Of a stretch of DNA of 64,000 nt, positions 12,752 through 59,604 are shown piece by piece. Source of the stretch: a virus. Taxonomy: Duplodnaviria > Caudoviricetes. Every line of letters starts with the position of its first letter. Positions within the stretch are counted from its first letter, which is position 1. The DNA lies in IMG/VR virus record IMGVR_UViG_3300028591_005933, positions 1,471-65,470 of that record. One strand, 5' to 3'. Both the position numbers and the translations under genes were made by a program. The notes under the pieces are model-generated. The model did not search any database and was not told the DNA's origin. It worked only from the letters and a program-made list of their open reading frames with translations.

Positions 12752-12774
12752 TTTTACAATCCATTATTAAAAAT

Positions 12775-12799
12775 AAAGTGCCATTTTAGGCACTTTTTT
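12775..12799 (+). terminator. Intrinsic terminator (possibly bidirectional)
   Basis: AAAGTGCC-ATTTTA-GGCACTTT followed by a T run, 24 nt after the stop of 12239-12751. Confidence 0.75.
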
Positions 12800-12804
12800 A
12801 ATAT

Positions 12805-12873: not shown

Positions 12874-12893
12874 ATATATTAGAACTTTTACAT

Positions 12894-13445: not shown

Positions 13446-13456
13446 AATATCCTCCT

Positions 13457-14524: not shown

Positions 14525-14632
14525 TTTAAAAAATACTCCTTCATAACCTTTATATTTTAACTATAAATCAATTCATTAAAAAATAACAAACCATAATTTT
14601 GATTTTTAATATTTAAATTTCCAAATAGTTTA

Positions 14633-15082: not shown

Positions 15083-15101
15083 AGCTTATTCCTTTCATAC
15101 C

Positions 15102-19438: not shown

Positions 19439-19685
19439 TTTTTTCTTCTATATTTTCTTTATCCTTATTTATAGAAGCTTTACTATAACTTTTTTCTGTT
19501 ACATATTTTTCCAACGTTGTATTATACTCTAAAACATCAACATTAGCTCCTGCAAAAAGAGCTCTAAAAGTATAATCATTTTCTAAACATCTTTTTATTA
19601 TATTTATTAAAGTTGATTTACCTGATTTTGTAGGACCTGCTATAATTATTCTTAAATTAGGTAATTTTTCTTGTTTATTTTCCAT
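19431..19685 (-). CDS. Small P-loop-containing protein
   Basis: IIIAGPTKSGKSTLIN Walker A in only 84 aa; translationally coupled to both neighbours. Confidence 0.55.
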   Translation of the reverse strand: MENKQEKLPNLRIIIAGPTKSGKSTLINIIKRCLENDYTFRALFAGANVDVLEYNTTLEKYVTEKSYSKASINKDKENIEEKNE

Positions 19686-20248
19686 TATAATTCTCCTTTA
19701 TCAATAGCATTATATAGTTTATATGCATTTGGGACTAATTTATCAAATGTTAATGGTCTTTTTTCTGGATTTTCTTTAAATTTTTTATATTCATTTATAG
19801 CATCTTGTTCAATAGCTGTAATAAACATACTATTAAATATTCTCATATTTTTTTTAGCTAATTCTTCGGAATCAAATACTGCCCAAATTATAGTTTTATT
19901 TTTAAATTTATTTCTTGTATGTTCAGCGTCAACAATAGCTATACTAAAAGCATATTGAGCTTTTAATTCATTACAAATATCATTAACTTTCATACCTGTA
20001 AAATCTTTATTTTTCCAATTTACAAAAATTTTACATATTTCAGTTGGTTTAGTTAATACATCTCTTTCTTTTGATATTATAGGTAGACAACTTTTATAAT
20101 ATTGAGTATTCCCAATATAAATAGGTTCTTCTTTAAATTTTGTTTTTTCTTGCTTAATTAAATTTTTAATTTTTTCTATTTTTTTATTTATATAAATATT
20201 TTTTGATTTAAATTCATCATTTGATAATATAATAGGCATTAAATTCAT
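19685..20248 (-). CDS. Hypothetical protein
   Basis: 187-aa ORF with GGAG RBS. Confidence 0.6.
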   Translation of the reverse strand: MNLMPIILSNDEFKSKNIYINKKIEKIKNLIKQEKTKFKEEPIYIGNTQYYKSCLPIISKERDVLTKPTEICKIFVNWKNKDFTGMKVNDICNELKAQYAFSIAIVDAEHTRNKFKNKTIIWAVFDSEELAKKNMRIFNSMFITAIEQDAINEYKKFKENPEKRPLTFDKLVPNAYKLYNAIDKGEL

Positions 20249-20324
20249 AAATAGATACTCCTTAGTTTATTAACTTTATTTTAGAAGTAGCTATCATTAA
20301 AAAAATTAGATAAAAATTTTCTAA

Positions 20325-21218
20325 TTATGCTTTAGTTTTATAAAAATATTTTTTTAAATCACAAACAAAACAAGTATTTTCTTCTGTATATTTATTAAAA
20401 TTTATTGAATGTCCACAAGTATTTAATTCGCAACTACAATAATCAAAATTTTTTAAAACCTTATTATAATGATATAATTCTTTTTTTTGTGGTAAATCAA
20501 AATTCTTTATATATGATTCTAAATAATTTTCATATTTTGTGTTTTTTGCAATTTCATTTACTTTTTCTAAAGTTTTAAATATTTTATTTTTTTCTACGCT
20601 TAAAGTTTTATCATATACAATATAAGGTAATAAATTAACATAAGTATTATATTTTATCATAAAATCTATTACATTAAAAGTATTATTTAGTATTGAATCA
20701 CACACTTTTTTTGTTAAAATTATATTTGTTACTATATTTAATCCATCATTTAAATATTTATTTGATAATAATAATAAATTATTTAACATAAGTTGTTTAT
20801 CATTTTCTGATTTAAATCTTCCATCTAAATCAAATGATGTAGTAAATTTTAATCTATGAAATAATTCATATTCTTTTATTAAATCTAATATATAAAATAA
20901 ATTACTTAAATTTTTATATAATAAATTGGTATTAAGGTATAATAAATCTATTTTATTTGATAACATATTAGCAACAATTTTTTTAAAAAAAGAATTTAAA
21001 AAATCATTATTAATATAAAATATTTCTCCTCCAACTATTAATACATGACTATTTTTTATAAATTTTGAAGAATCTATAAATTCTAATACTTTATTTAAAG
21101 AATTTTTTTGTTCTTCTAATGTTAAAATATTAGGATTATTTCTTTGAAAACAAAATTTACAGTTATTGTTACAATTATCCCAAACTAAAAATTCATATAT
21201 AGGCTTACAACTAAACAT
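20325..21218 (-). CDS. Radical SAM protein (paralogue of the 50-55 kb cluster)
   Basis: WDNCNNNCKFC (CX3CX2C), VGGEIF, TTSFDLDGRF, C-terminal CGH-x12-CFVCD. Confidence 0.85.
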   Translation of the reverse strand: MFSCKPIYEFLVWDNCNNNCKFCFQRNNPNILTLEEQKNSLNKVLEFIDSSKFIKNSHVLIVGGEIFYINNDFLNSFFKKIVANMLSNKIDLLYLNTNLLYKNLSNLFYILDLIKEYELFHRLKFTTSFDLDGRFKSENDKQLMLNNLLLLSNKYLNDGLNIVTNIILTKKVCDSILNNTFNVIDFMIKYNTYVNLLPYIVYDKTLSVEKNKIFKTLEKVNEIAKNTKYENYLESYIKNFDLPQKKELYHYNKVLKNFDYCSCELNTCGHSINFNKYTEENTCFVCDLKKYFYKTKA

Positions 21219-21221
21219 TTT

Positions 21222-21746
21222 TTATTCTTTTGGAAAATTATCTAAAAATTCATTATAATATTCTTCAATATCTAATGTTGTTGGGGTATTAGTTTCTAAT
21301 TTTTTAAATAAATCATATGTAAAAGTATATAATTTATCTCTATAATTAATCATAACTTTAGCATCATCTGAAAATTGTTTTATTTTAGAATGATAAAAAG
21401 AAATCATATTTTCAACAGAAGTATATTTATGATTTATAGCAAAATTTTCTAATTGAGTAGTAACATACATTAAGCATTGATTTTTAAATTCAAATATTAT
21501 TTTTTCTATAGTTTGTTTATTTAATTCTATAATTTCAGGTAATTCAGATTCTAAATAATATTTATTATCTTTTGCTTTTATTATTTTTTCATTAGTACAA
21601 TATAGTTGTTTGTTATACCAATCTAAATTTCTTGGATCTTCAATATAACTTTTTGCTACATCTATATCGGATACCCATAAAGCCCCTTTTTCTTCAGATT
21701 TTATATAAAATTTAGTAGCTGTATAAATATTACCTATAATGTCCAT
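21222..21746 (-). CDS. Tail-fibre assembly chaperone-like protein
   Basis: LENFAINHKYTSVENMISFYHS...FSDDA..MINYRDKLY matches the LDxFA..YxS...SY..S..F..A...RD pattern of phage fibre-assembly proteins. Confidence 0.5.
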   Translation of the reverse strand: MDIIGNIYTATKFYIKSEEKGALWVSDIDVAKSYIEDPRNLDWYNKQLYCTNEKIIKAKDNKYYLESELPEIIELNKQTIEKIIFEFKNQCLMYVTTQLENFAINHKYTSVENMISFYHSKIKQFSDDAKVMINYRDKLYTFTYDLFKKLETNTPTTLDIEEYYNEFLDNFPKE

Positions 21747-21768
21747 TTAAAACTCCTATTTTGATATA

Positions 21769-21774
21769 TAGAAC
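21769..21774 (-). promoter_or_regulatory. GTTCTA putative late-promoter motif for the chaperone + radical SAM pair
   Basis: GTTCTATATA, then AGGAG RBS, then ATG at 21746. Confidence 0.6.
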
Positions 21775-21974
21775 GTTTAATATATGTTTTTTAATTTTTT
21801 ATTTTTTTAACTATTTGGAAATTTAAAATCAATTTTTAATGAAAAAATATACTTCAATTAAATAACTAAAATATATATATTATATATAATATAATAATTA
21901 ATAATAATATTTAAAAAATTCTTTTATTGAATTTTTTTATTATATAAAGCAATTTATTGGAGATTTTGACAAAA

Positions 21975-22274
21975 ATGAATAATATTAAAGTTATAACAAA
22001 ATTTAATAAATTTACTAAAGAAAATTCATATTTTATTTATTGTAATGATTATTATCTTGAAATAGGTAATAAAAGTAATTTAATATTTCTTATGTATATT
22101 TTAGAAAATTTTAAAAAAGCTAAAATAGATAATAATAATCCATTTTTTAAAATTAGTTTTAATAATGAGAATTTTTATTTAACTTATAAGCCATCTAATA
22201 AAAAATTATGCCTAAATCGTCAAGATCTAGGCACATTATTAGCAAATTTATATATCAAGAAAGTGGGATATTAA
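21975..22274 (+). CDS. Hypothetical protein
   Basis: ATG at 21975 with GGAG upstream; low-complexity N/K/F-rich sequence; convergent overlap with the next gene. Confidence 0.4.
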   Translation: MNNIKVITKFNKFTKENSYFIYCNDYYLEIGNKSNLIFLMYILENFKKAKIDNNNPFFKISFNNENFYLTYKPSNKKLCLNRQDLGTLLANLYIKKVGY

Positions 22275-29868: not shown

Positions 29869-31518
29869 ATGAGTAAGTCAGCTTGTTTTGGTAAAGATAC
29901 ACAAGATAATTTAGTAAAAGGTTTGAATTTAGTAGCAGATGCTGTAAAATCTACTTTGGGTCCTTGTGGTAATACTGTAGTTATTGCAAGAGAAGATAAA
30001 TTGCCAGTTATTACTAAAGATGGTGTTTCTGTTGCAAAAGAAATTGCACCAAAAGATGAAAAAATTAAATTAGGTGCAGATTTAGCTATTTCTGTAGCTC
30101 AAAAACAAATGGATGCTGTTGGTGATGGTACTACGACAGCTACTGTTTTAGCTCAGGCTATTGTAAATACAGGTATTCGTCAAATTGAATTAAGTGAACA
30201 TACAGTAAATCGTACATCTTTTCGTAAAGGTATAGAAAAAGCAAGAGATTATGTAATTTCTAAACTCGAAGAAATGAGTACCCCAATTAAATCTAATGAT
30301 GAATTAATTAATATTGCTACGGTTTCTGCTAACGGAGATGAACTTTTAGGAAAAACAATCGCCGAGGCTTATGAAAAGGTTGGTAAAGCTGGTGTAGTTT
30401 TAGTTGAGGAAACAAAAGATCGTACAATTAGATTAGATTTTAAAGAAGGTATGACATTTAATAAAGGTTGGACTTCTCAATATTTTGTAAATAATCATGA
30501 AAATCAAACTGTTGAATTTGATAGACCTAAAATTTTATTATGTAATTCAAAAATATCAAATTTTACTACATTGGCTAATATTATACAAGATACTTTGCAA
30601 GCAGAACAACCTTTAGTTATTTTTGCTGAAAGTTTTGATACGAGTGTTACTCAAGCTCTAGCTCTTAATATTATGCGCTCTGGTGGTAGATTTAAGATTG
30701 CTTGTGTTGAAGCTCCTGGATATGGTGAAAGAAGACTGGATATTTTAAGAGATATTGCATGTTATGTTGGGGGAAACGTTGCAGATGATCCTCTTGGAAT
30801 TAAATATGAAACTATGTCTTCTGCAGATTTTGGTTCTTGTGAAAAAATTATAATTAAGAAAGATGAAACTATTATACGTGGTGGATTTGGGGAACAAGAT
30901 CAAATAAGTGAAAGAATTAAAGCTATTAATGGTTTGATTGGAGCTTTAAAAGAAAATGATACTTATGAAAGAGAACAACTTGGTAAGCGTTTAGCTTCTT
31001 TAACTACTGGTGTAGCTGTTATTCAGGTTGGAGGTTCTTCTGAAGAGGAAATTAAGGAATTACGTGATCGTTTAGATGATAGTACTTGGGCTGTTAAAGC
31101 AGCTTTAGAAGAGGGTTATTTACCTGGTGCTGGTAATACTTTATTATATTTATCAGAAAAAGTTGAATCAGAAGTAAAAACTACAAATTCTAATGAGGCT
31201 TTAGGAGTTAAAGTATTTGCAAATGCTTTAAAAGCACCATTTAAGACAATTGTTGATAATGCTGGTTTACCTGTTGAATTAGTTACACAAGAGGTTTTAA
31301 GTAAAAACGATTATAATATCGGTTATGATGCTAAAAATTTAAAGGTTTGTAATTTAATTGAAGCAGGTATTCTTGATCCAACAAAAGTTGTAAAAGGTAC
31401 TGTTTATGCTGCTTCTTCTATTGCAGCTGTAACTTTAACAAGTAATGTTATGATTACAGTTGATCCTATAGAAAATAAAGGTTTGTCATTAAATATGATG
31501 ACAGATCCTATGATGTAA
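29869..31518 (+). CDS. groEL: Chaperonin GroEL (phage-encoded)
   Basis: TLGPCG, ITKDGVSVAKEI, GDGTTTATVLA, EAPGYGERR, GILDPTKV. Confidence 0.97.
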   Translation: MSKSACFGKDTQDNLVKGLNLVADAVKSTLGPCGNTVVIAREDKLPVITKDGVSVAKEIAPKDEKIKLGADLAISVAQKQMDAVGDGTTTATVLAQAIVNTGIRQIELSEHTVNRTSFRKGIEKARDYVISKLEEMSTPIKSNDELINIATVSANGDELLGKTIAEAYEKVGKAGVVLVEETKDRTIRLDFKEGMTFNKGWTSQYFVNNHENQTVEFDRPKILLCNSKISNFTTLANIIQDTLQAEQPLVIFAESFDTSVTQALALNIMRSGGRFKIACVEAPGYGERRLDILRDIACYVGGNVADDPLGIKYETMSSADFGSCEKIIIKKDETIIRGGFGEQDQISERIKAINGLIGALKENDTYEREQLGKRLASLTTGVAVIQVGGSSEEEIKELRDRLDDSTWAVKAALEEGYLPGAGNTLLYLSEKVESEVKTTNSNEALGVKVFANALKAPFKTIVDNAGLPVELVTQEVLSKNDYNIGYDAKNLKVCNLIEAGILDPTKVVKGTVYAASSIAAVTLTSNVMITVDPIENKGLSLNMMTDPMM

Positions 31519-45892: not shown

Positions 45893-48709
45893 ATGAAAAC
45901 TAATAAAAAAGTAAAGGACACTAGACAATTACTTATTGAGTCTGCAGAATTTGTATCAAAGATAGAAATGTCAAAAGATTTAAAAGAAGCTGTATCATTG
46001 GCTTCTGGTAAACATGGTACATTAATTGTTAGAAATATTCCATGTACAATTTTAAATCGTCAAAATCAAAACGGACGTATTTATTCTACTGAACTTTTAG
46101 CTCAATCTATTAAAGAGGCTACACCAGATTTTAAAACAAAGGCTTTATTATCTCAAGCTGATGAACATCCAGAAGGTTCATTTGTTGCGCCTTCTCATGC
46201 TTCACATGTTGTTATTAATGCTTATATTAAGAAGAATATTGAGATAGAAGTTGAAGGAAAACGTGAAAGACATGATGTTTTATTTGAAGATTGGGAAGTT
46301 TTAAATACAGCCGAAGGTAAGAATTTAAGAGCTTTATTTGAAGCTGAATGTTCAATCGGTACATCTATTCGTGGTGTTGGTGATTTAAATGGTAAATATG
46401 TAGAAAATTATAGTTTTCTTGGTACTGATTGTGTAGGTAATCCATCTTCTTCTACTTTTACTCGTATGCCTGTTTCTGAAAGTGTAAAATTAGAATTTAA
46501 GGCAGATAAAAGAAAACTTGATGAAAATTTTATTGTTAGTAGTTCATCAACAAATGTTGTTAAAGATTTAGATCAAGCAAGTGCTTTACAAGGTGAATTA
46601 GATAGTATTGGTTATGGTACTGTTACAAAAACATCGACAAAAGTAGATAGTGAAACAGATCCTAAAACAGGGGCTGAAACAACAATGACTACTTTAGAGG
46701 CAGAAACAGAAGACGAAGTTTCTGATTTAGATAGTGCTTTATTAATGGCTAAAAGAGCAATGCTTAATGGTAAAATTAGTATTGATTCAATTACAATAGA
46801 AAACGTTAAAGAAGAAGATGAGCCTAAAAAAGAAGCGTCTGAAGAAAATGTTGAATATGCTCCTTTAAATGAAGAAGATATCAAAGAAGAAGATAAAGGT
46901 GCAGGTTTAAATAAGATTGTAGATTTGAATGGTACTCCTGTTCTGGGAGCAGATTTAGATGTTTGTTGGGAAATTGCGGATCAATTAAGAAAAAATAATG
47001 ATAAAAACAATATGAATTGGCAACGCTCTTATCAATCTTTAGTTGCTGCCAACTTACCTCAATATATTTTAGATTATGCAGATGGTAAAGATATGAATAA
47101 AAATGAAGTTAAAGAATCAGTAATTAAAGAAGCAGATGAAGAAAATAAAGCCTTAGAAGGTAAAAAATTTGTATTAAAAACACCAAATGGCTTTGTTGCA
47201 ATGGATGGAAATACTTTAGTATTTAAAAATGATCCTAAAGATGCTTTTCATTTTATTGTTGGTAAAGAAGAATCTGGTATGATCCATTTAAGTGGTGTTC
47301 AAAAAATTTTGGATGCTATGGGCGTATATGATGTAGAAAAATATTATCGTAAAGATGTAACTGACATTAGTGCAAATTATGATGCTAATTTAAGATCAAT
47401 ACAAAATAATGATAAAGTTGAAATTAAAGAACCAGATGAAGAACAAAATTTAGAAGATGCTGAAGTATCAGAAAATAGTTATTCTGTAAATAAGACTCCT
47501 GTAACATCTAATAATACAGTAAAAGCTACTCCAGCTACAGCTATTTCTGAAGATAATGGTAGTAATACAAAATATACAGCAGAAGTTACTATGAATTCAG
47601 AAGGAAAAGGTACAGAGATTAATACTATTCCTGTTTCTGCTGTTGATCTTAATTCTGCTTTGGCTGAAGTTTCAAATCTTTGGGAAATGAAATCTAAAAA
47701 GGTAAATGGTACAGTGGCTGTTAAAATGATTGATACAACTACTGGTGAAACTTTTATGTATAATCCTGCTAATAATACATTAGATCCAGTTGCTCCTCAA
47801 CAAGTTACTGAAGGCCTTGGAAGTAATGTAGATGATGGTGAAATAATTCAAGATAAAAATAAGCTTACTATGAATTTAGATCCTGATCATAAAGTAGAAA
47901 AAGAGTTTAATACTCCTGCTCAAGCTAATGTAGCAAAAGCAGTATTAGAAAAAGATGGTGCAGATGGTAGTATTATGCTTTCTGAAGAAGATGATAAATC
48001 TACCGAAGATAATCAAATTACAGATGAAACAGATAAATATATTAACAAAGGACCTAATTATATGAAAGGTCTTGTTAATAATAAAGTAGACAAAACAATA
48101 CAATCAGCTATTAATTCTGGTATAGATGTATATGATTATTGGGACGATGATGATATTGAAGAAGCTGTAAATAGTGATGAAGTTGTTCCTGGTTGGTATA
48201 TTGGAATTGATAATATTGGTGTAAGCGGTCCTTTTGATTCTAAAGAAGAGGCCTTAGATGGATTAGAGGATGTTGAAGAATATGCTACTATTATGTATTT
48301 AGGCGATGAATCTGAAAAAAATTCTGAAGAAGAAGCAACATATCAAACAGAAGATGAAATTGAAGAAGAAAATATAAATGAAAAATTATATAAGAATCCA
48401 ACTACTCCTTCTGATGGATATGTAGATGAAACTTTAAATGATTCTTTAGAAGAAGGTGAAGATAATCAAATTACTGTTACATTAACAGATATTGATTGGG
48501 ATATAAATGATTTTGATAACCTAGACGTAGAAGAAGCTGAAGATCCTGTTAATATTATAGAAGAATTACCTGATACTATTACAGTTGTATTAAATGCTGA
48601 AGATTTTGATAGTGATGATCCAGAAGAGGTTAAGGCCAAATTAATGGATTTGGCTAATCAACAAGCTGGTATTCGTATTAATAATGCAACAATTCAAAGT
48701 ATTCAATAA
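45893..48709 (+). CDS. Prohead protease (T4 gp21-like) with ~740-aa acidic C-terminal extension
   Basis: NQNGRIYS, DEHPE, SHASHVV, VLNTAEGKNL, IGTSIRGVGD, DCVGNPSS gp21 motifs in the first ~190 aa. Confidence 0.85.
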   Translation: MKTNKKVKDTRQLLIESAEFVSKIEMSKDLKEAVSLASGKHGTLIVRNIPCTILNRQNQNGRIYSTELLAQSIKEATPDFKTKALLSQADEHPEGSFVAPSHASHVVINAYIKKNIEIEVEGKRERHDVLFEDWEVLNTAEGKNLRALFEAECSIGTSIRGVGDLNGKYVENYSFLGTDCVGNPSSSTFTRMPVSESVKLEFKADKRKLDENFIVSSSSTNVVKDLDQASALQGELDSIGYGTVTKTSTKVDSETDPKTGAETTMTTLEAETEDEVSDLDSALLMAKRAMLNGKISIDSITIENVKEEDEPKKEASEENVEYAPLNEEDIKEEDKGAGLNKIVDLNGTPVLGADLDVCWEIADQLRKNNDKNNMNWQRSYQSLVAANLPQYILDYADGKDMNKNEVKESVIKEADEENKALEGKKFVLKTPNGFVAMDGNTLVFKNDPKDAFHFIVGKEESGMIHLSGVQKILDAMGVYDVEKYYRKDVTDISANYDANLRSIQNNDKVEIKEPDEEQNLEDAEVSENSYSVNKTPVTSNNTVKATPATAISEDNGSNTKYTAEVTMNSEGKGTEINTIPVSAVDLNSALAEVSNLWEMKSKKVNGTVAVKMIDTTTGETFMYNPANNTLDPVAPQQVTEGLGSNVDDGEIIQDKNKLTMNLDPDHKVEKEFNTPAQANVAKAVLEKDGADGSIMLSEEDDKSTEDNQITDETDKYINKGPNYMKGLVNNKVDKTIQSAINSGIDVYDYWDDDDIEEAVNSDEVVPGWYIGIDNIGVSGPFDSKEEALDGLEDVEEYATIMYLGDESEKNSEEEATYQTEDEIEEENINEKLYKNPTTPSDGYVDETLNDSLEEGEDNQITVTLTDIDWDINDFDNLDVEEAEDPVNIIEELPDTITVVLNAEDFDSDDPEEVKAKLMDLANQQAGIRINNATIQSIQ

Positions 48710-49588: not shown

Positions 49589-49606
49589 ATTAAAATGAGG
49601 GAAATA

Positions 49607-50290
49607 ATGAAATTTTTAAAAACTTTGTGTAAGATTTTATTTGGTAAAAAAGAAAAAGATAAACAAACGGAGGTTGTTATGGAAAATAAATTTCTTAATA
49701 ATCAAAGCTTTGTAAATATAGCTAAAGAATTTGATTTAAATCCAGCACATATACGAGCAATTTTTGAAGTTGAGGCTGGAGGTAAGTCTGGGTTTTTAAA
49801 AGAAGATAGTACAAAACCGATTACTTTAGAAGAGGGGCATATATTTTATAAATACGCTAAGAAAAAAGGTTTAAACGTAGAAGAATTGTGTAAAAAATAT
49901 CCAACAATTTGTTATCCTAGATGGGTAAAAACATATTATAAAAAAGGTTTAGCAGAATATGCTCGTTATGAGCTCGCTAAAAGCGTAGATGAAGAATGTG
50001 CTATGTTAGCCACATCTTTTGGAATAGGACAGCTTATGGGCTTTAATTATGCATCCTGTGGCTATAAATCAGTTAAAGATTTTGTTAAGGCTATGCATGA
50101 GTCTGAAGAAAAACAACTTAGGGCAATGTGTATGTTTATAAAGTCAAACAGAAAGATGTTTAATGCTCTTAAAAAACAAGATTGGAGTACTTTTGCGAGT
50201 TTATACAATGGAAGCGGGTATAAACAAAATAAATATGATATTAAATTACAGTTAGCTTATAATAAATGGAAAGATACTGCATTAGCTTAA
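49607..50290 (+). CDS. N-acetylmuramidase endolysin (DUF3380/PF11860-like)
   Basis: AIFEVEAGG, EEGHIFY, TSFGIGQLMGFNY, SEEKQL, WSTFASLYNGSGYKQNKYDIKL; in-frame starts at 49607 and 49679 each have an RBS. Confidence 0.9.
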   Translation: MKFLKTLCKILFGKKEKDKQTEVVMENKFLNNQSFVNIAKEFDLNPAHIRAIFEVEAGGKSGFLKEDSTKPITLEEGHIFYKYAKKKGLNVEELCKKYPTICYPRWVKTYYKKGLAEYARYELAKSVDEECAMLATSFGIGQLMGFNYASCGYKSVKDFVKAMHESEEKQLRAMCMFIKSNRKMFNALKKQDWSTFASLYNGSGYKQNKYDIKLQLAYNKWKDTALA

Positions 50291-51205
50291 TTCTTTTTTG
50301 AGTTTTTCTACGTCATCCCATATATTTATATTTGAATCTATATATCCAGCTTTTTTATATAGTCCAAATGGTAAAAGAGTTTCTATATTTTTATTAGTTG
50401 CTATATAATTTGTACTATTATAAAGTACATGTATAGTATTTGCTTTTTTTTCATTAGCAAAAAGGTCTAAAATATTTATAGATTTATCTAGTATAATTGT
50501 TTTTCTAAGAAAATTTAAAAAATCGTTACGTTTTGGTAAAAAATTTGGAACATATTTATCAAATTCTTCTTTATTTCTATAATCGTAACCAGTGTGTGGA
50601 ATATTATAGTCTATAGATGTATTAAATTTTTTACTAAAATTTTGTATATTGAATTCATTTTTTAATACTTTTTGTATAAAATCTTCTGTAATTATAATTT
50701 GAGTATGTAATTCTAGCATAGGATATTGATTATGTAAATACAACATATTCATTTGCCATAATTCTTCTTCTTTATTAGATTTAAATCTACCAAAAGTATC
50801 ATAAGATGTACAAATACAAAGTCTTTTTAATAGCTTATTGTCGATAAAAAAATCTATAAATTTTTGAAAATAATCTTTAATATCAAAAATTAAAGAAGTA
50901 GCTATATAAAATTTATTTAGTTTATTAGTTTTTAATAAATTTGCTATGATTTCTAAGGCTTCATAGAATTTATCTTCTATTTCTTTTTGATCTAATTGAC
51001 CTCCAAAAAATTCACCACCTATAAATCCTAATTCATTATAATTATTAATTTCATCTGTTTTTAATATATTGATTATTCTTTGTAAATTTTTTAATTTGTT
51101 TTCAGCATTAAAAGTAGGCTGATATTTATTAAAGCAAAATTTACAATTAACATGACAATTTTTCCATAATTCAAATTGTAAAAATTTTTTTTCCATATTA
51201 TTCAA
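50282..51205 (-). CDS. Radical SAM protein
   Basis: QFELWKNCHVNCKFC, IGGEFF, CTSYDTFGRF; lacks the C-terminal Cys/His motif of its paralogues. Confidence 0.88.
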   Translation of the reverse strand: MNNMEKKFLQFELWKNCHVNCKFCFNKYQPTFNAENKLKNLQRIINILKTDEINNYNELGFIGGEFFGGQLDQKEIEDKFYEALEIIANLLKTNKLNKFYIATSLIFDIKDYFQKFIDFFIDNKLLKRLCICTSYDTFGRFKSNKEEELWQMNMLYLHNQYPMLELHTQIIITEDFIQKVLKNEFNIQNFSKKFNTSIDYNIPHTGYDYRNKEEFDKYVPNFLPKRNDFLNFLRKTIILDKSINILDLFANEKKANTIHVLYNSTNYIATNKNIETLLPFGLYKKAGYIDSNINIWDDVEKLKKELS

Positions 51206-52202
51206 AGTCCTCTAATAACATATTTAAAAATTTAATACCTTGGAGTAATAATTCGGGCTTTTGAAGGTATGTTGTACCTCTAAATCTTAATATTCTATTG
51301 TCATCTGATTCAATTTCATATTTTTTAAGTCTAGTTCTTAAATCAGGATTTAATTGACCTAATTCATCTGTCATATGGAAAAAATAATTTGCTCCATTTG
51401 CATCATCTTCAACTTTAAAATGTTTTTTTGAAATTATTGGAAAATAGTATTGAGTCATTATATTTCTAAATTGATATAATTTTTCTCTTTTGGCTGTTAT
51501 TAGTTCTAGCATTTTTAAATATGTATTTGCCCAATTATATATAGGTTTACCAAATTCTTTATTTTTATTATTTATTATTAAGATTCCCATATCAAAATTT
51601 CTAATTATTGCATGAGCTGTCCCAATAACATAATCAAATATAGAATAATCTCTTGGTATTAAAAACATTTCTTGTACACTATCTATAACTATTGTACTTT
51701 TTATGTTATGATTATTACAAAATTTTCTTATTTCTAAATATAAATCTTGAGCTGTTGTATATCCATCTTTGACATGAGTACCAATAATATATACAAAAAC
51801 TTTTTTATATTTTAAAATTTCTTTTTGAATATTTTTTATATTTAAAGTTTTTACATCATATTCATCTAATAATATTTTATTATCTATTTTGTCGAGATTC
51901 ATATTTACGGATGGATGCTCAAGAATAGATGAAACTACTAATGTATCTTTATCTACATATTCAGAAAATAATGCATTAATTAAATTAGTAGCAGATTCAT
52001 CAAATCTTATTGTTGAATTTTCAATATTTAAATTACATGCTGGCATTTTTTTAAAATATTGTAATAATAAATTATTATATTTTTCTTTTGATTCGAATTT
52101 AATTTCTTCAGTATTAAATGAAGTTAAAAATTTTAATTCATCGTCTGAAAAAGAATTATCTTTTAACCACCAATTTAACATATATTGCGTAGAATCATTC
52201 AT
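51198..52202 (-). CDS. PLP-dependent fold-type I (class V aminotransferase/NifS-like) protein lacking the Schiff-base Lys
   Basis: FDESATNLIN, SSILEHPSV, IDSVQ, DYVIGTAHAII (HA where class V has HK; DNA reads gct cat gca). Confidence 0.7.
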   Translation of the reverse strand: MNDSTQYMLNWWLKDNSFSDDELKFLTSFNTEEIKFESKEKYNNLLLQYFKKMPACNLNIENSTIRFDESATNLINALFSEYVDKDTLVVSSILEHPSVNMNLDKIDNKILLDEYDVKTLNIKNIQKEILKYKKVFVYIIGTHVKDGYTTAQDLYLEIRKFCNNHNIKSTIVIDSVQEMFLIPRDYSIFDYVIGTAHAIIRNFDMGILIINNKNKEFGKPIYNWANTYLKMLELITAKREKLYQFRNIMTQYYFPIISKKHFKVEDDANGANYFFHMTDELGQLNPDLRTRLKKYEIESDDNRILRFRGTTYLQKPELLLQGIKFLNMLLEDFE

Positions 52203-53135
52203 TTATTTTTCCTTCAATATTTTTTCTTTATCACACATCATGCAAGCATCACTATCTATATAACGTTGATATAAACTTAAATGACCACATTTTGGGTTTT
52301 TTGAACCATCTTCATTGTTATTTTTTCTATTGTTATAAATTCTTAATTCTTTTCCACCTAAATTTTCATATAACGTATCAGCACGTAATTCTTTATCAAA
52401 TAGAGAGATATCTTTATCTTTCTCTAAAAAAGAACTTATAAAAGAAATAAAGCTTTTTCTATTTGGAAAAAAATTTTTTAGTCCTGTTCGTTTTTCAAAA
52501 TCTGAAATAGAATTATCAAATTGACCAATGTCAGGACATTTAAAGTATATTTCGGTATTGTATTTTTGTTTAAAGTCTTTGAAAGAAAAGGTATTATTTA
52601 AATATTTATTAATTAAATCTTGTGTTAATATAAAAGTAGTATTTTTTTTAATATTTTTATAAGTATTAGATATAAATTGCATGTTATTTTTCCAAGTATC
52701 TTCTATACTTTTTGTATGAAATCTACCTATTGTATCATAACTCGTTGTTATCCAAATATTTTTATAATTATTTAATTTATTTAGTATACCTATAAATTCG
52801 TCTGAAATAGGTTTAGTTAAACTTGCTGTTATCCAAAAACCTTTGATTATATTTTTATCTAATTTTTCACAAATACAGTTAATTAAATCAATAAATTCAT
52901 TTTTTAATTGATCAGTATTTAATTGACCTTGAAAAAATTCACCACCTATTAAAGCTATTCCTTCATAGTTTTTTAAAATTAAATTATTTTCTATTAATTT
53001 TTTTGTATTTTTTATACTATTTAATTTTTCTTCATTTGAATTGAATAAATTACCCTCTTGTAAATAACAAAATTTACAGTGATTATTGCATTCTCTCCAT
53101 AATTCAAATTGAATAAAATTATCCATTAATTTCAT
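52203..53135 (-). CDS. Radical SAM protein
   Basis: QFELWRECNNHCKFC, IGGEFF, TTSYDTIGRF, CGH-x12-CMMCD. Confidence 0.88.
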   Translation of the reverse strand: MKLMDNFIQFELWRECNNHCKFCYLQEGNLFNSNEEKLNSIKNTKKLIENNLILKNYEGIALIGGEFFQGQLNTDQLKNEFIDLINCICEKLDKNIIKGFWITASLTKPISDEFIGILNKLNNYKNIWITTSYDTIGRFHTKSIEDTWKNNMQFISNTYKNIKKNTTFILTQDLINKYLNNTFSFKDFKQKYNTEIYFKCPDIGQFDNSISDFEKRTGLKNFFPNRKSFISFISSFLEKDKDISLFDKELRADTLYENLGGKELRIYNNRKNNNEDGSKNPKCGHLSLYQRYIDSDACMMCDKEKILKEK

Positions 53136-54009
53136 CCTTAAATTTTAATAAATCACAAATTATACATTTATTAGAATCTTTATAACATTGTGTATATAAA
53201 ATATCATGTTTGCACTCGGCTAATGTATCATTTATTTCTTCTATATACTCTTTATTTAATCTAGAGGTTATAACATCTGTTGGAAAAGTATAAATTTTTG
53301 AGGCTCGTTTTTCTAAATTAAATAAATTATTAAATAATTCTTTATTTTCTGTTTTTAATTTTTGCATAAATTTGAAAAAGTTATTTCTAGATGGAAAAAA
53401 ACCTTTTAAATTTCTATTTGAATGCGAATATGAATCAGAAGGTCTAATTAAATCTAACTGGTTTGAATTTATTTTTTCTAATACCTCTTTATTGTCGTTT
53501 AAATATGCAATTATTAGATCATCTGTTAAAATTGTTTCATAATGTAAATCAATTCCATAACTTTTTATTAAATCTATATTATTATGCCATATTATTTTAT
53601 TGTCTTTATTGAATCGATACTTATAATCCCAAGAGGTATTTATTGAAAAGCTATTTATAATTTTTTTATCATTAAATATATTTAAAATATCTTTTAAATA
53701 GGGACAATTATTTAATAAAGAGCTAACTATATAAAATTTTTTTAATTTTTTTGATAATAAAAGAGCTTTTATTTTGTTAAAAAGTGTTAATAATAGATTT
53801 ATTTCAATGGTAGTTAGGTCTGGTATTAGAAGTTCTCCACCAATAATACATAATTCGTCAAATTGTGTATAATCTATATTATTTAATTCTTGTATTGCTT
53901 TATTAATACAGTTTGCTTTGTTGAGATTAAAGTTTTTAAATTCACGTATAGCACAAAATGCACAATTATTTGGACAATCTAACCATAATTCAAATTGTAT
54001 TATATTCAT
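53119..54009 (-). CDS. Radical SAM protein
   Basis: QFELWLDCPNNCAFC, IGGELL, NTSWDYKYRF, CKH-x13-CIICD. Confidence 0.88.
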   Translation of the reverse strand: MNIIQFELWLDCPNNCAFCAIREFKNFNLNKANCINKAIQELNNIDYTQFDELCIIGGELLIPDLTTIEINLLLTLFNKIKALLLSKKLKKFYIVSSLLNNCPYLKDILNIFNDKKIINSFSINTSWDYKYRFNKDNKIIWHNNIDLIKSYGIDLHYETILTDDLIIAYLNDNKEVLEKINSNQLDLIRPSDSYSHSNRNLKGFFPSRNNFFKFMQKLKTENKELFNNLFNLEKRASKIYTFPTDVITSRLNKEYIEEINDTLAECKHDILYTQCYKDSNKCIICDLLKFKDEING

Positions 54010-54020
54010 TTTTTATTTTC

Positions 54021-54920
54021 CTAATAAAAATTTAATATATCACATAACATACAATTATCACAATCACTATAGCATTGATATAATTTACTGTGTCCGCATT
54101 TTATATTTTTGTTAGTTTTATCAATAGATAATTCTGGAGTTTGAGTTGTGTTTTCGTTTGGCATTAACAATCCAGAATATTTAAATTTACTAGAATTTAT
54201 GGTAGATGCTATAAAATTTTCAAGTGTTTGTGGATTTGTTGTTTTTAAATTTATACAAAAGTTTAAAAAATCCTTTCTTTTAAAATTAAAATCATCTAGT
54301 TTAAGCCCAGTATGTATCGGGTGTGGATATAATAAACATAAAGTGTTACCAGGAATAATATTAGTTTCAAAATTTGTTATATTAAAATCATCATTTTTTA
54401 TAAGGTCAATTAAATATTGAGTTAAAATCATTTGAACTCCAACATTATAATTATATTTTTTATGGAATTCGTTTATATTATTTAAAACTAAACTTGAAGC
54501 TTTACTAGAAGAAAATCTATATTTTAAATCATAAGAAAAATTAAGATCTATTCTTTCTATTCCTGTAGCATTGACAATTTTATCTATAACTTTGTATAAA
54601 AATTCAGGATTATATAAACCATTTGTTACTGTTGAATATTTTGCTAATTTATTAGGCTTTAATACTATTTCAATTATATCATCAATTAATTCAAAAAACT
54701 TATTTTGTAATGAGGCATCAGTAATATAATATAATTCACCGCCAAGTAATGATATTCCATGCTTAAACTTATTTTTCCAATCTACGTATTTTAAATTTTC
54801 TTGTATTTTTTCAAGTTTTTTAAATTGAGCCTCTATAGAAATTGGGATTCTATCAGTTCTTAAGCAAAATTTGCAATTATTACTACAGTTTGGCCATACA
54901 CTATATTGTACCATAGACAT
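54021..54920 (-). CDS. Radical SAM protein
   Basis: QYSVWPNCSNNCKFC, LGGELY, NFSYDLKYRF, CGH-x12-CMLCD. Confidence 0.88.
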   Translation of the reverse strand: MSMVQYSVWPNCSNNCKFCLRTDRIPISIEAQFKKLEKIQENLKYVDWKNKFKHGISLLGGELYYITDASLQNKFFELIDDIIEIVLKPNKLAKYSTVTNGLYNPEFLYKVIDKIVNATGIERIDLNFSYDLKYRFSSSKASSLVLNNINEFHKKYNYNVGVQMILTQYLIDLIKNDDFNITNFETNIIPGNTLCLLYPHPIHTGLKLDDFNFKRKDFLNFCINLKTTNPQTLENFIASTINSSKFKYSGLLMPNENTTQTPELSIDKTNKNIKCGHSKLYQCYSDCDNCMLCDILNFY

Positions 54921-54951
54921 TGTTAAATCCCCCTTTTAACATCTATGCTAT

Positions 54952-55644
54952 TTAAATTTTCATATAAGCAATAAACATTGATGAGCTACTACTACTACTA
55001 CAACAACTTGAACACGAAGATGAAGATGATGAAGTTAAAACAATATCATAAAGCGTTACATGCGTTTTGCTTAATTTATTTACTATATTAGTCCAACTAT
55101 TAAACATAGTTGTTATATCAGTAGCTGTTATTAATTCTCCGTCTGGAATATTTGTAATACTTGAAATAGTTGCACTTTTATCATACATTAGTTTTGGACT
55201 ACTTACATAGTTACTAACAACATGTTTTAATTTGCATGCACAGAATAGAGCTGTTAAATTCCAAAAGTTTAAAATACCTCTAGTTGTAACTAATTCGTTA
55301 GATTTTGTATCAATTCCTCTTTCATTTAAAAAATTAGTTAATTGAGTCATAACTTCACTTTCTGTAACATAATATTTTCCATTATGATCACCACTAAAAT
55401 TATAGCCCATAACTGTTTCATTTTTTACGCTTATTGTGGCCTTTATTTCTTTACCATCTTCATTAACTATTTTATATTTCGAATCGTTATTAACATAATC
55501 TTTTCTTAGCTCTTTTGGAACTGCATTTTCATATTGTGACTGTGAACTAACGATATTTATTGGTTTTTGACGAGTAAATAATAGATTTTTAAAATCTTCT
55601 ATTAACTCACCGTATGTTATGGTATTATTTTGAGCAACTGCCAT
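54952..55644 (-). CDS. Virion-like protein with Ser/Cys-rich C-terminal tail; candidate radical SAM substrate
   Basis: Starts MAVAQNNTITYGEL (ATG 55644, 1 nt after the upstream stop); ends LTSSSSSSCSSCCSSSSSSSMFIAYMKI. Confidence 0.75.
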   Translation of the reverse strand: MAVAQNNTITYGELIEDFKNLLFTRQKPINIVSSQSQYENAVPKELRKDYVNNDSKYKIVNEDGKEIKATISVKNETVMGYNFSGDHNGKYYVTESEVMTQLTNFLNERGIDTKSNELVTTRGILNFWNLTALFCACKLKHVVSNYVSSPKLMYDKSATISSITNIPDGELITATDITTMFNSWTNIVNKLSKTHVTLYDIVLTSSSSSSCSSCCSSSSSSSMFIAYMKI

Positions 55645-55645
55645 T

Positions 55646-56122
55646 TTATTTATCCACACTTAATAAATTTACGTACATATAAAGCTGACTAGATAAAGCA
55701 TATAAAACATCTAAAGCATCTTGATATTGTATATTATTTTCTTTTGGTGTATATAATTTTTGTAAATTACTTAATGTTTGAAAATCTAGGAATAATAAAA
55801 CACTTTTTATATTAGTAGGTATTTTATCAACTGGTACTTCTTCATTTACAGTACAAAATTTAATACATGCAAAGTAAATACCAAGTAATTTTTCACAAAA
55901 ATTCTTTAAATCTTCTCCAACTGCTTCTTTGATATCAATGAATTCCATTACATCATTAAATATTACTTTATCATTATTAAAAAAATCGTCACTGAAGTTA
56001 TGTTTTCCTTTTATTAATAAATAAATAGTAAAGGCCAAAATATCATTCATTTCAGTGTTTTCACTATTTATAAAGTCTTTAATACATTTTATTTTATTAT
56101 CAGTGGTATCATTTTTTAACAT
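55646..56122 (-). CDS. Hypothetical helical protein, first gene of the radical SAM operon
   Basis: GGAG RBS; GTTCTA motif at 56153-56158. Confidence 0.7.
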   Translation of the reverse strand: MLKNDTTDNKIKCIKDFINSENTEMNDILAFTIYLLIKGKHNFSDDFFNNDKVIFNDVMEFIDIKEAVGEDLKNFCEKLLGIYFACIKFCTVNEEVPVDKIPTNIKSVLLFLDFQTLSNLQKLYTPKENNIQYQDALDVLYALSSQLYMYVNLLSVDK

Positions 56123-56152
56123 TGCTATTCTCCATCCTTTAAGTATATTTAA

Positions 56153-56158
56153 TAGAAC
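56153..56158 (-). promoter_or_regulatory. GTTCTA putative phage late-promoter motif (radical SAM operon copy)
   Basis: Same hexamer is oriented towards downstream genes at 122, 8322, 12179, 12191, 12880, 16531, 21769, 26787, 31582, 32762, 37012, 45843 and 48726. Confidence 0.6.
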
Positions 56159-57291: not shown

Positions 57292-59604
57292 ATGGTATTA
57301 AAACCGTTAAAAATTAAAATGAAAAAAGATAAAAAAGAGCCTAAAAAAGTTGACGCTGAAGTATTTAAAGATTTATCATTTAATTTATCAATGGTTTATG
57401 GTAGAAGAGACGAAGTGGAGGTTTCAGAAAGTGGTGAATATTCAGTTAGTTTAAATAGTTATGAAAAATATAAAAAATTATATTATTATAGTAATATAAC
57501 TCATTATATTTTAACAAATAGTAATGTTTCTGCTTTATCTAAGGGTAAACATATATTATCTATGCCATTTTTCTTATCATCGAATTTAAATAAGTCAATA
57601 AAAAATAAAGTTTCAAATATTATTAAGGAGTTTGAAGCAAAGGCTAATAAATTAGACGCTATTAGAGAAAAAATTGAACTTAGTAAGACTTCGATGGAAT
57701 ATCCTTCATTTGATTTATATAATTTAATATATATTCCTTCATTTTTTGCAGAATTTTTAACTTTAGGTAAAGCTTTGAATACTGAATTAAAAAAATATTT
57801 AAATAGTATAGATGTTTTATCATTAAAAAAATCTTATTGGATAAAAAATTTTGAATTATTTTTTGATAAAATAGGAATAAAAAACAATAGTATAAAAGAG
57901 TTTACTGAGTTGTTAATATTTGACAGCGTTATAGATGTTTGTAGAATAGCTGATGCAAATTTAAGTAAATATTCTCCAGATACTTTAGCAAAATATCTTG
58001 GAAATAAGTTTAAATTACCTCAAAATGCTTTAAATGAATATGAATCTATTTTATTTCATTTGGAATATGATCCAAAAAGATTAGTATCTGTTTATATTGA
58101 GCATTGCTTTTTATATGCATGTCTTAGAAAATATATTTCAAATGAAAAGGCTTTAAAAAGTTATTTACCAACATTAAAAGATTCAAAACTTTCTTTAGAT
58201 AATTTTTCTTATATTGAGCAGATTGATTATTTAAAGCGTTTATTAAAAAATAGTTTAGATAATCGTAAAAAAGGTATAAATATTTTATTATATGGAGAAC
58301 CCGGTACTGGTAAAACAAGTTTTGCTACAGCTTTAATGAAAAGCCTTGGTACAAATAATTATGTAGTACCTGGTTTAAATTTGATTAGTGAAGAAAAAGG
58401 TAATAAGGGAATTGAATCAACAAAAGGTGTTAATGATTTAAGAAAGCATAAGTATTTGACTATGCAAACATGTTTAAAAAGTAGTAAAAATAGTATAATT
58501 TTATATGATGAGGCTGAAGACTTTTTTATGCATAGTCCAAACGAAGTTACAGAAAAATTTACTATTAATGAAATACTAGAAAATAATTGTGTGCCTACAA
58601 TTTGGACTACAAATAGTTTATGGTGTATGAGTAAAGCTTTTATTAGAAGATTTACATATGTATTAAACATAGATAATCTTCCTAAAGATATTTATAAAAA
58701 ATTATTTGAAGATTTGTTAAAAAAATATAGTATTTTTGTTGATGATGAATTAAAAAATTTATTTATACAATATAAACCAACAATTGGTATAGTTGAAAAA
58801 ATTTTAAGTAATTATAAATTAAGTAAATCTAAAGATAGTAATCAGTTAAAAAAAGATTTATTAGATTCGTTAAAAGGTTTAAATTATGGTGATATTTTAA
58901 AAAAATTGCCAATTAATAGTTTTAAGTTTAATCCAAATTTATTAAATACTTCGGTTGATTTAATTGACCTTACAGCAAGCATAAAGCAAAACGGTAGGTT
59001 AGATTTTAGTTTGTTACTTTATGGCGTTCCAGGGAGCTCTAAAACGTCATATGCAAGATATTTGGCAGAAGAATTAGGATTAAATGTAATAAGTAAAACA
59101 TATACAGAACTTTCTTCTATGTGGGTTGGAGAAACTGAAAAAAATATTGCAAGATTGTTTGAAGAGGCTGAGCGTGATAAAGCTTTAATAATATTAGATG
59201 AATGTGATGTTTTATTACAAGATCGTACAAGATCTGTAAGAAGTTGGGAAACTAGTCAAACTGAAGCATTATTAACAGCAATGGATAATCATCCTTATCC
59301 ATTTGTTATGACTACTAATTTATATGATAATCTGGATCCAGCGGTTATGAGAAGAGTATTGTATAAAGTAAAACATGATTATTTAACAGATGATCAAGTA
59401 AAAATGGCTTTTGAATACTTTTTTAATATTAAATTAAAAGAAAATTTACATTTATCTAGATTGACTAGTGGTGATTTTGCAGTTATAAAAAAACAAGCCG
59501 AATTTCAATCAAAATTAAGTGATAAAACTTGGCTTGTTAATAAATTAACTGAAGAGATGAATCAGAAAAAAATGTTAAATGCAAATACAGAATTATTGAT
59601 TTAG
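57292..59604 (+). CDS. Tandem two-domain AAA+ ATPase
   Basis: Walker A GEPGTGKT and Walker B LYDEAE; second module GVPGSSKT, ILDECD, SSMWVGETEKNI pore loop, TTNLYDNLDPAVMRR second region of homology. Confidence 0.9.
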   Translation: MVLKPLKIKMKKDKKEPKKVDAEVFKDLSFNLSMVYGRRDEVEVSESGEYSVSLNSYEKYKKLYYYSNITHYILTNSNVSALSKGKHILSMPFFLSSNLNKSIKNKVSNIIKEFEAKANKLDAIREKIELSKTSMEYPSFDLYNLIYIPSFFAEFLTLGKALNTELKKYLNSIDVLSLKKSYWIKNFELFFDKIGIKNNSIKEFTELLIFDSVIDVCRIADANLSKYSPDTLAKYLGNKFKLPQNALNEYESILFHLEYDPKRLVSVYIEHCFLYACLRKYISNEKALKSYLPTLKDSKLSLDNFSYIEQIDYLKRLLKNSLDNRKKGINILLYGEPGTGKTSFATALMKSLGTNNYVVPGLNLISEEKGNKGIESTKGVNDLRKHKYLTMQTCLKSSKNSIILYDEAEDFFMHSPNEVTEKFTINEILENNCVPTIWTTNSLWCMSKAFIRRFTYVLNIDNLPKDIYKKLFEDLLKKYSIFVDDELKNLFIQYKPTIGIVEKILSNYKLSKSKDSNQLKKDLLDSLKGLNYGDILKKLPINSFKFNPNLLNTSVDLIDLTASIKQNGRLDFSLLLYGVPGSSKTSYARYLAEELGLNVISKTYTELSSMWVGETEKNIARLFEEAERDKALIILDECDVLLQDRTRSVRSWETSQTEALLTAMDNHPYPFVMTTNLYDNLDPAVMRRVLYKVKHDYLTDDQVKMAFEYFFNIKLKENLHLSRLTSGDFAVIKKQAEFQSKLSDKTWLVNKLTEEMNQKKMLNANTELLI

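Follow-up and report, generated by a model that had tools for sequence, protein, structure and literature searches.

Radical-SAM (rSAM) enzymes are found in several described systems, and the locus examined here is best compared with each in turn. By fold, its rSAM enzymes tied with the anaerobic sulfatase-maturing enzyme anSME (anSMEcpe, PDB 4K36-4K39), ChlB, SkfB, CteB, SuiB and viperin, so the fold alone does not single out a chemistry. The rSAM maturases of RiPPs (ribosomal modified peptides) and their precursors (CteB/SCIFF ranthipeptides, SkfB, SuiB, ChlB, and YydG/EpeE with YydF) use short precursors, an RRE or leader, fixed Cys positions and usually a protease and exporter; in EpeE, according to the titles of PDB entries 8AI3 and 8AI4, Cys223 is the conserved cysteine outside the clusters that donates a hydrogen atom. 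Proteusins with nitrile-hydratase-like leader peptides (NHLP), such as polytheonamide PoyA with PoyD and other rSAMs, have a large leader domain and a long low-complexity core on which several rSAM enzymes act repeatedly. Phage thymidine hypermodification clusters (M6 gp52/gp53; PMC8989533) encode an rSAM enzyme next to a PLP-fold enzyme, and are defined by a 5-hmdU DNA kinase, an aGPT-Pplase and a dUMP hydroxymethylase; their rSAM is like spore-photoproduct lyase and their PLP enzyme is predicted in that paper to keep its lysine. Viperin and prokaryotic viperins have no C-terminal Cys motif, act on nucleoside triphosphates and are single genes.

The window (the whole 64,000-nucleotide stretch analysed, positions 1,471 to 65,470 of record IMGVR_UViG_3300028591_005933) comes from a 65-kb piece of an uncultured IMG/VR jumbo phage, the complete relatives of which are about 237 kb, and it has no close cultured relative. 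A sequence-only reading had recognised seven tightly packed minus-strand genes at 50282-56158 behind one GTTCTA motif, with four rSAM paralogues, a lysine-less PLP-fold gene and a protein with a Ser/Cys tail. This observation was confirmed, although a fifth paralogue about 30 kb away had been missed. The features are as follows.

56153-56158, minus strand: GTTCTA promoter-like motif, 31 nt upstream of the first gene of the operon
55646-56122, minus strand: 158-aa accessory protein of no known family (taken as helical from sequence alone in the sequence-only reading), conserved directly upstream of the tailed protein in relatives
54952-55659, minus strand: tailed protein, 235 aa from GTG or 230 aa from the ATG at 55644, ending SSSSSSCSSCCSSSSSSSMFIAYMKI
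54979-55032, minus strand: run of 18 residues made only of Ser (14) and Cys (4), written with five different Ser codons
54955-54978, minus strand: C-terminal cap MFIAYMKI
54021-54920, minus strand: rSAM_D (299 aa), the best conserved orthogroup, with a C-terminal CGH..C..CxxCD motif
53119-54009, minus strand: rSAM_C (296 aa), an orthogroup that in this sample occurs only in the window and its nearest relative, locus L012
52203-53135, minus strand: rSAM_B (310 aa)
51198-52202, minus strand: NifS/class-V aminotransferase-fold protein (334 aa) with Ala in place of the PLP lysine
50282-51205, minus strand: rSAM_A (307 aa), the one orthogroup without the C-terminal Cys motif
21222-21774, minus strand: 174-aa gene upstream of rSAM_E with its own GTTCTA motif (21769-21774), homologues of which flank the cassette in relatives
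20325-21218, minus strand: rSAM_E (297 aa), the fifth paralogue, which in relatives lies inside the cassette
19685-20248, minus strand: 187-aa gene downstream of rSAM_E, homologues of which (45-59% identical) lie beside the cassette in the related loci L006, L007, L020 and L044

Gaps or overlaps between the operon genes run from -17 to +31 nt and no terminator-like site lies inside the operon. Of 23 GTTCTA hits in the window, 13 lie in the roughly 3.7% that is intergenic (binomial p about 2e-13) and 10 lie 7-74 nt upstream of a same-strand gene start, so the motif exceeds chance by position but not by count. The same motif heads head-morphogenesis genes, namely the prohead protease fusion, a 1492-aa protein and a 384-aa protein, which makes a shared and probably late promoter class plausible.

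The four enzymes of the operon share the motifs (Q)(F/Y)xxWxxCxxxCxFC, GGE and S-x-D...RF, supporting the proposal that they form one paralogous family. The cluster-binding cysteines C12, C16 and C19 together with GGE, S129 and R135 are invariant in an alignment of 59 sequences covering all five orthogroups, and both the SAM-binding GGE motif and a partial TIM-barrel fold are present. The best Pfam PF04055 scores were 27.6-28.6 bits, below the gathering cut-off of 29.5 bits, indicating a divergent family that the model does not capture. No SPASM Pfam domain (PF13186) was matched; rSAM_B, C, D and E nevertheless carry the four cysteines of CGH..C..CxxCD, which rSAM_A lacks, and VIA aligned residues 1-299 onto anSME, ChlB and CteB including their C-terminal domains. 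The family has at least 1116 clusters at 50% identity, all of them unnamed, and is under clear purifying selection. It splits into five monophyletic orthogroups (SH-aLRT 96-100 for A, C, D, E and the core of B), implying old duplications with retained, distinct roles. Islands in relatives add canonical rSAM-SPASM enzymes.

The PLP-fold assignment made from sequence alone also held, with a match to TIGR01977 at 3e-5, a match to a NifS-like PDB chain (1ECX) at E 0.027, and an ESM Atlas model with TM 0.70-0.73 over about 300 residues to Aminotran_5/cysteine desulfurase models. The T-A-H-(A/S) of the family aligns with S-G-H-K of Escherichia coli IscS, so that A198 of the window protein falls on K206, and the lysine is absent in all 15 family members. 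No cysteine is invariant either, while the His, Asp and Gln/His that contact PLP are kept; the protein may therefore be non-catalytic.

The tailed protein is predicted to comprise a folded alpha/beta N-domain (AF2 pLDDT about 85-92 over most of residues 11-210) and a disordered C-terminal tail (pLDDT below 50), and fold searches with it returned no match. In 31 distinct tails the runs, 9 to 47 residues long, hold 701 Ser and 72 Cys and no other residue, with 3-6 Ser codons from both codon boxes per tail, which indicates selection on the protein with only Ser-to-Cys changes tolerated. The hydrophobic cap follows the consensus x-[FY]-I-[AGV]-[YFW]-[MFW]-x-[IL], with F/Y at position 2 in 30 of 31 tails, I at position 3 in 29 of 31, an aromatic at position 5 in 30 of 31, and I/L at position 8 in all that reach it. 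The accessory protein has homologues next to the tailed protein in 24 related loci but no Pfam, PHROG, NCBIfam or PDB match.

The link between tail and enzymes was examined in both directions. All 22 related loci with at least 5 kb upstream of an rSAM_D orthologue hold a tailed protein 25-6166 nt away, as do all 14 with at least 6 kb on both sides; rSAM clusters lacking a tailed neighbour, which had been named beforehand as grounds for rejecting the proposed tail modification, were not found among them. In reverse, a DNA pattern for the cap alone found 10 true tails in IMG/VR, nine of which have the rSAM family in the stored flank, while the tenth lies on the contig of locus L008, which also has it; none of 11 chance matches does (Fisher p 3.4e-5). 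The gene set recurred in every related phage examined. The order accessory protein, tailed protein(s), then rSAM E/A/D/B with or without the PLP-fold gene is conserved, although the N-domains of the tailed proteins are only 22-41% identical.

The interpretation offered from sequence alone, that the operon decorates or cross-links the tail of a phage protein in the late phase as a virion-modification system, is partly supported. The enzyme family, the missing lysine and the conserved partnership of tail and enzymes were borne out, whereas a virion location for the tailed protein and the occurrence of any modification were not shown. The suggested link to CP220-like Campylobacter phages was not supported, as tblastn with the rSAMs of this operon matched none of 50,697 deposited phage genomes and the portal is at most 27% identical to any isolate. 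A fixed Cys-thioether topology, as in sactipeptides and ranthipeptides, was likewise not supported, since there are 0-6 Cys per run at varying positions and 2 of 31 runs have none.

The most likely explanation, held with moderate confidence, is a dedicated phage-encoded system for modifying a protein's tail that resembles RiPP maturation but has no release protease. In this view the five rSAM orthogroups would each use a [4Fe-4S] cluster and SAM to abstract hydrogen atoms from the tail, probably assisted by the accessory protein and the lysine-less PLP-fold protein. A ribosomal precursor encoded beside its putative modifying enzymes is present, as in RiPP clusters, but none of the seven operon genes matched an RRE, peptidase or transporter family, so the product most likely stays attached to its N-domain as a modified phage protein and is not released as a peptide. 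Compared with the rSAM RiPP maturase systems, the 'leader' here is a folded domain of about 200 aa with no known fold and the host is a phage; compared with proteusins, no sequence or fold similarity of the N-domain to NHLP was found and the core is a Ser/Cys homopolymer. What the analysis establishes is the gene set and its conservation, the two-way association, the strict Ser/Cys make-up of the run, the rSAM and PLP folds and the absent lysine; that the tail is the substrate, that it is modified at all and that expression is late are inferences resting on gene neighbourhood, composition and the promoter-like motif shared with head genes.

As to the chemistry, the best guess, and a doubtful one, is a reaction for which Ser and Cys are equivalent starting points, such as anSME-like oxidation to C-alpha-formylglycine or conversion to dehydroalanine, with further steps falling to the other paralogues; epimerisation or cross-linking that involves the cap is not excluded. 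However, the anSME substrate motif (C/S-x-P-x-R) is absent, the tail having no Pro or Arg, and one enzyme would suffice for formylglycine, so that five orthogroups are not explained by that chemistry. It is possible, though slightly less likely than not, that gut and rumen jumbo phages carry an undescribed protein hypermodification pathway in which the five dedicated rSAM families and the PLP-fold helper convert the run into a new kind of polymer, for example of formylglycine, dehydroalanine or D-residues, or a cross-linked rod, a chemistry that would have no described counterpart. No paper describing the system was found. If the tail is modified, this would be a large and so far unnamed phage-borne rSAM system working on a protein, with a substrate of a kind not reported before, a pure Ser/Cys homopolymer on a folded carrier. 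It would add new enzymology to the rSAM superfamily and give a function to a conserved island of up to about 24 kb in jumbo phages of human-gut and other metagenomes, and it may explain how these phages build or protect part of their particle.

An alternative, considered unlikely, is that the enzymes transform the cap, with the run as a flexible spacer, by cross-linking or excising the aromatic-containing C-terminus as MftC does for mycofactocin (C-terminal Val-Tyr), PqqE for PQQ (Glu-Tyr) or the three-residue cyclophane enzymes for aromatic-x-x motifs, giving a capped end or a small cofactor-like product. The cap is indeed the most conserved part of the tail and the run length varies as that of a spacer might. 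Nevertheless, a mere spacer would tolerate Thr, Gly, Ala or Asn, yet 773 run positions hold only Ser and Cys; the aromatic residue is Y, F or W, so tyrosine-specific chemistry of the MftC or PqqE type does not fit all members; and no peptidase to release a product is present in the operon.

It is equally unlikely that the rSAM paralogues and the PLP-fold protein act on nucleotides, DNA or another small molecule, by viperin-like dehydration or DNA base hypermodification for example, with the tailed protein a co-regulated neighbour, carrier or structural protein. By sequence the closest curated and solved relatives are viperins (NF038283 at 5e-6 to 3e-4, PADLOC pVip at 4e-7, PDB viperin-like at 5e-4), phages are known to pair an rSAM with a PLP enzyme in thymidine hypermodification (PMC8989533), and fusions of this family with MiaB/RimO-like methylthiotransferases, a family that includes tRNA-modifying enzymes, exist. 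The NF038283 matches, however, cover only the N-terminal cluster-binding region of 60-70 residues and reach 19.8-25.9 bits against a 180-bit cut-off, and the five orthogroups here are tied to a protein partner. No thymidylate-synthase-family gene (PF00303, the dUMP hydroxymethylase family) was found in the window's record, which is a fragment, or in the complete 237-kb relative G002, which does carry the cassette. This reading also does not explain the two-way association with the tail.

That the paralogues are mostly degenerate or non-catalytic, in an assembly or chaperone module where the tail is a docking or linker element, is very unlikely, since despite the lost lysine, the lost C-terminal Cys motif of rSAM_A and the sub-threshold Pfam scores, the catalytic motifs, which would decay in scaffolds, are invariant across five old orthogroups of a large family under purifying selection.

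Between positions 50282 and 56158 of the window, seven ORFs lie head to tail on the minus strand, separated by -17 to +31 nt. In order they encode:
a 158-aa accessory protein
a 235-aa tailed protein (230 aa from the ATG at 55644)
rSAM_D
rSAM_C
rSAM_B
a 334-aa PLP-fold protein
rSAM_A

The 65,470-base IMG/VR record of which the window forms bases 1471-65470 was rated 23% complete by CheckV, and the G+C content is about 25%. No terminator-like site was found inside the operon, sigma-70-like promoters were not above chance level, and neither a tRNA nor an Rfam family was detected in the window. The sequence-only reading, which had described this minus-strand gene set, its four rSAM paralogues and its Lys-less PLP protein, held as an observation, although a search of the record with rSAM_D revealed a fifth paralogue, rSAM_E, at 20325-21218. 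In the window the cassette is compact and split, with rSAM_E lying 30 kb away beside two genes that flank the cassette in relatives. The G+C content falls to 16.5% at 20001-22000, around the rSAM_E operon and the gap at 21.7-22.3 kb, and both GC skew and gene strand flip at about 26.75 kb, where minus-strand and plus-strand gene blocks diverge. Downstream, an N-acetylmuramidase endolysin (49595-50290, plus strand; PF11860, E 6e-59) converges on rSAM_A, with the 3' ends of the two genes overlapping by 9 nt. On the other side, a 770-aa protein with two AAA+ ATPase modules (57292-59604, plus strand; phrog_10401, E 3e-63) lies next to the operon on the opposite strand; it was not seen next to the cassette in the relatives examined, where only homologues of the window's genes were mapped.

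The GTTCTA motif occurs 23 times in the window, which is fewer than shuffled sequences give, but its positions are far from random. Thirteen hits lie in the roughly 3.7% of the window outside long ORFs (binomial p about 2e-13), and ten lie 7-74 nt upstream of a same-strand gene start. The motif was found at the head of the following:
56153, the operon
21769, the small operon that holds rSAM_E
45843, the gene for a prohead-protease fusion
37012, a gene for a 1492-aa protein
31582, a gene for a 384-aa protein

Given the family assignments of these neighbours, a promoter class shared with head genes is plausible, while late timing is an inference. The 938-aa protein at 45893-48709 (plus strand) matches the head maturation protease (phrog_207) over its first 220 residues, and the rest is a long, very acidic, low-complexity region; it may be a protease-scaffold fusion. 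A full-length GroEL-like chaperonin (29869-31518, plus strand; phrog_5725, E 1e-126, 533 of 540 profile positions) also lies among the head genes. At 12179-12196 two GTTCTA motifs stand back to back, 12 nt apart on opposite strands, between divergent genes (11447-12172, minus strand, and 12239-12751, plus strand), in what looks like a divergent promoter pair.

All five rSAM paralogues carry CxxxCxxC, GGE and an S-x-D...R-F motif. In a 59-sequence alignment of the window's paralogues and their relatives, C12, C16, F18, C19, G60, G61, E62, S129 and R135 are invariant, and W9, D131, P199 and D294 are nearly so. Pfam, NCBIfam, PHROGs and PADLOC recognised only the N-terminal cluster region, and below the curated cut-offs; the least weak named matches were viperin and NrdG, and PADLOC gave only weak N-terminal pVip matches. 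AlphaFold2 with the same alignment gave a confident model of rSAM_D (pLDDT 94.9, pTM 0.91), for which Foldseek ranked viperin-like enzymes, anSMEcpe, EpeE, ChlB, SuiB, CteB and SkfB at E 1e-5 to 4e-7, with TM 0.40-0.54; EpeE/YydG was not the top structural neighbour. The top of the list leans toward protein- and peptide-modifying enzymes with C-terminal cluster domains, but the differences are about one Z unit, so the predicted fold does not settle the substrate. Orthogroups B, C, D and E end in CGH..C..CxxCD, which may bind a cluster or zinc, whereas rSAM_A and its orthologues lack these cysteines. A maximum-likelihood tree (quick search, SH-aLRT support) recovered the orthogroups as monophyletic, with support of 100 for D, 100 for E, 99 for C, 96 for A and 98 for the core of B, although three divergent rows labelled B from the related locus L010 sit on long branches outside that core. 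Group C appears only in the window and its nearest relative, locus L012. The duplications therefore predate the divergence of these phages, and each copy has been kept.

The sequence signal for the PLP-fold protein is weak but consistent, comprising TIGR01977 (cysteine desulfurase family) at 3e-5 and the NifS-like PDB entry 1ECX at E 0.027. The ESM Atlas model of this exact protein superposes on Aminotran_5/cysteine desulfurase models at TM 0.70-0.73 over about 300 residues. A profile alignment to E. coli IscS, statistically weak by itself (hhalign E 0.1), puts three motifs in register: the family's E-H falls on T-E-H-K-A-V, D-x-V-(Q/H) on D-A-T-Q, and T-A-H-(A/S) on S-G-H-K, so that Ala198 of the window's protein falls on IscS Lys206. 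All 15 family members lack the lysine, and no cysteine is invariant. The description of a Lys-less PLP enzyme in the sequence-only reading is therefore right. The protein keeps the residues that contact the cofactor ring but cannot form the usual internal aldimine, and it may be a PMP-type enzyme, a binder or a scaffold.

The tailed protein ends with 18 residues of only Ser and Cys, followed by MFIAYMKI, and the run is written with TCA, TCT, TCG, AGT and AGC. AlphaFold2 with 38 relatives predicts a folded alpha/beta domain (pLDDT about 85-92 over most of residues 11-210) and a disordered tail (below 50). The domain has no convincing fold match in PDB or BFVD (Foldseek E at best 0.27, VIA Z at best 5.2), and the accessory protein has no sequence match in PDB. 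Used alone, the tailed protein found no relatives, either by a pattern scan of IMG/VR or by a word-indexed protein search; relatives were reached only through rSAM_D.

The search anchored on rSAM_D returned 8 IMG/VR loci and 36 metagenome loci, some of the latter from records labelled human gut metagenome. Every one of the 22 loci with at least 5 kb upstream of rSAM_D has at least one protein ending in a Ser/Cys run plus cap, 25-6166 nt away, as do all 14 loci with at least 6 kb on both sides; the loci without a tail are short or truncated on that side. The gene order is accessory protein, tailed protein(s), often a tail-less paralogue, then rSAM E/A/D/B with or without the PLP-fold gene, and it recurs although the tailed proteins are only 22-41% identical to that of the window. 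The tail-less paralogue is encoded immediately downstream of the tailed protein in most relatives (loci L006 at 9421-9975 and L008 at 5848-6414, among others), whereas an HMM search found none in this window. In the reverse direction, a DNA pattern for F-I-A-Y-M-x-I-stop hit 21 places in IMG/VR. Ten are true tails preceded by a Ser/Cys run, of which nine have the rSAM family inside the stored flank, and the tenth is on the L008 contig, where the family lies just beyond the flank. The other 11 are chance matches, and none has the family (Fisher p 3.4e-5). The occurrence of homologous rSAM clusters without a Ser/Cys-tailed neighbour, set beforehand as a ground for refuting the sequence-only reading, was thus looked for and not found.

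Among 31 distinct tails, the run is 9-47 residues long (median 24) and holds 0-6 Cys, with two runs having none. The cap follows x-[FY]-I-[AGV]-[YFW]-[MFW]-x-[IL] plus 0-2 further residues. The 773 run residues are 701 Ser and 72 Cys; not one Thr, Ala, Gly, Asn, Pro or Arg occurs, although all of these are one mutation away, and each tail uses 3-6 Ser codons. This points to strong selection on the protein in which only Ser and Cys are allowed. The varying number and position of Cys argue against a fixed thioether topology, which was set aside for this reason, and suggest instead that Ser and Cys are equivalent for the function. They would be equivalent for oxidation to formylglycine (the anSME reaction) or for elimination to dehydroalanine, although this last step is inference.

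The system works most like an rSAM RiPP or protein-maturation system, such as anSME acting on sulfatases, or proteusins with large leaders and several rSAMs. However, no SPASM or RRE match, protease, exporter, anSME motif or fixed Cys pattern was found. Literature searches found no description of the system, and an Atlas lead, 'tSAM_targ_Cxxx_rpt' (19% of one cluster, score 0.80), led nowhere in the literature. It is regarded here as probable rSAM maturation of a ribosomal substrate, differing from the described systems in these respects, and it is quite possible that the chemistry itself is new. The gene set, the association of tail and enzymes in both directions, the composition of the run and the missing lysine rest on the analysis itself, whereas modification of the tail, expression and any location in the virion are matters of inference. 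The interpretation offered in the sequence-only reading is thus partly supported: the partnership of enzymes and tailed protein stands, but fixed Cys thioethers do not fit, and the suggested kinship with CP220-like Campylobacter phages could not be supported, as DNA and protein searches of the operon, rSAM_D and rSAM_A against 50,697 deposited phage genomes found nothing. The portal is at most 27% identical to that of any cultured phage.

Of the alternatives, the cap as the real core, in the style of mycofactocin, PQQ or the cyclophane peptides, is a serious variant, but the Ser/Cys-only run argues that the run is more than a spacer. Nucleotide or DNA chemistry may also be considered, since viperin is the nearest relative by sequence and phages do pair rSAM and PLP enzymes in thymidine hypermodification (PMC8989533). 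The viperin matches, however, cover only the cluster loop and fall far below the cut-off, the hypermodification rSAM is like spore-photoproduct lyase, and its PLP partner keeps the lysine by that paper's structure-based prediction. Moreover, the thymidylate-synthase family is absent from the window and from G002, a complete related genome, and thymidine hypermodification was judged unlikely; the nucleotide or DNA reading also leaves the tail association unexplained. That the enzymes are degenerate scaffolds is unlikely, given the invariant catalytic motifs.

The rSAM family is large. The word-indexed search found 1474 clusters at 90% identity, all unnamed or 'hypothetical', on contigs up to 292 kb, and an exhaustive HMMER search of 1.84 billion representatives found 1116 clusters at E<=0.001 and 332 at E<=1e-30. 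Two relatives are complete or nearly complete genomes of 237 kb, one with direct terminal repeats, and one of them has 14 Radical_SAM hits, 13 of them within 74-98 kb. Much larger islands than that of the window are carried by relatives: 74-98 kb of G001, the contig of L006, with these 13 Radical_SAM hits within 24 kb, and L008 at 1757-15121. These include a canonical rSAM-SPASM enzyme and a second aminotransferase-like gene, both in L008, other rSAMs, and a 436-aa gene in L006 that looks MiaB-like but matched only Pfam Radical_SAM. This varying accessory set resembles tailoring genes of natural-product clusters. The island in G001 also holds two tailed and two tail-less paralogues. Natural fusions of the family (proteins P0145, P0162 and P0128 from the HMMER search) carry an N-terminal MiaB/RimO-like methylthiotransferase (UPF0004 plus Radical_SAM) or a P-loop NTPase domain, hinting at sulfur insertion or an ATP-dependent step in some lineages.
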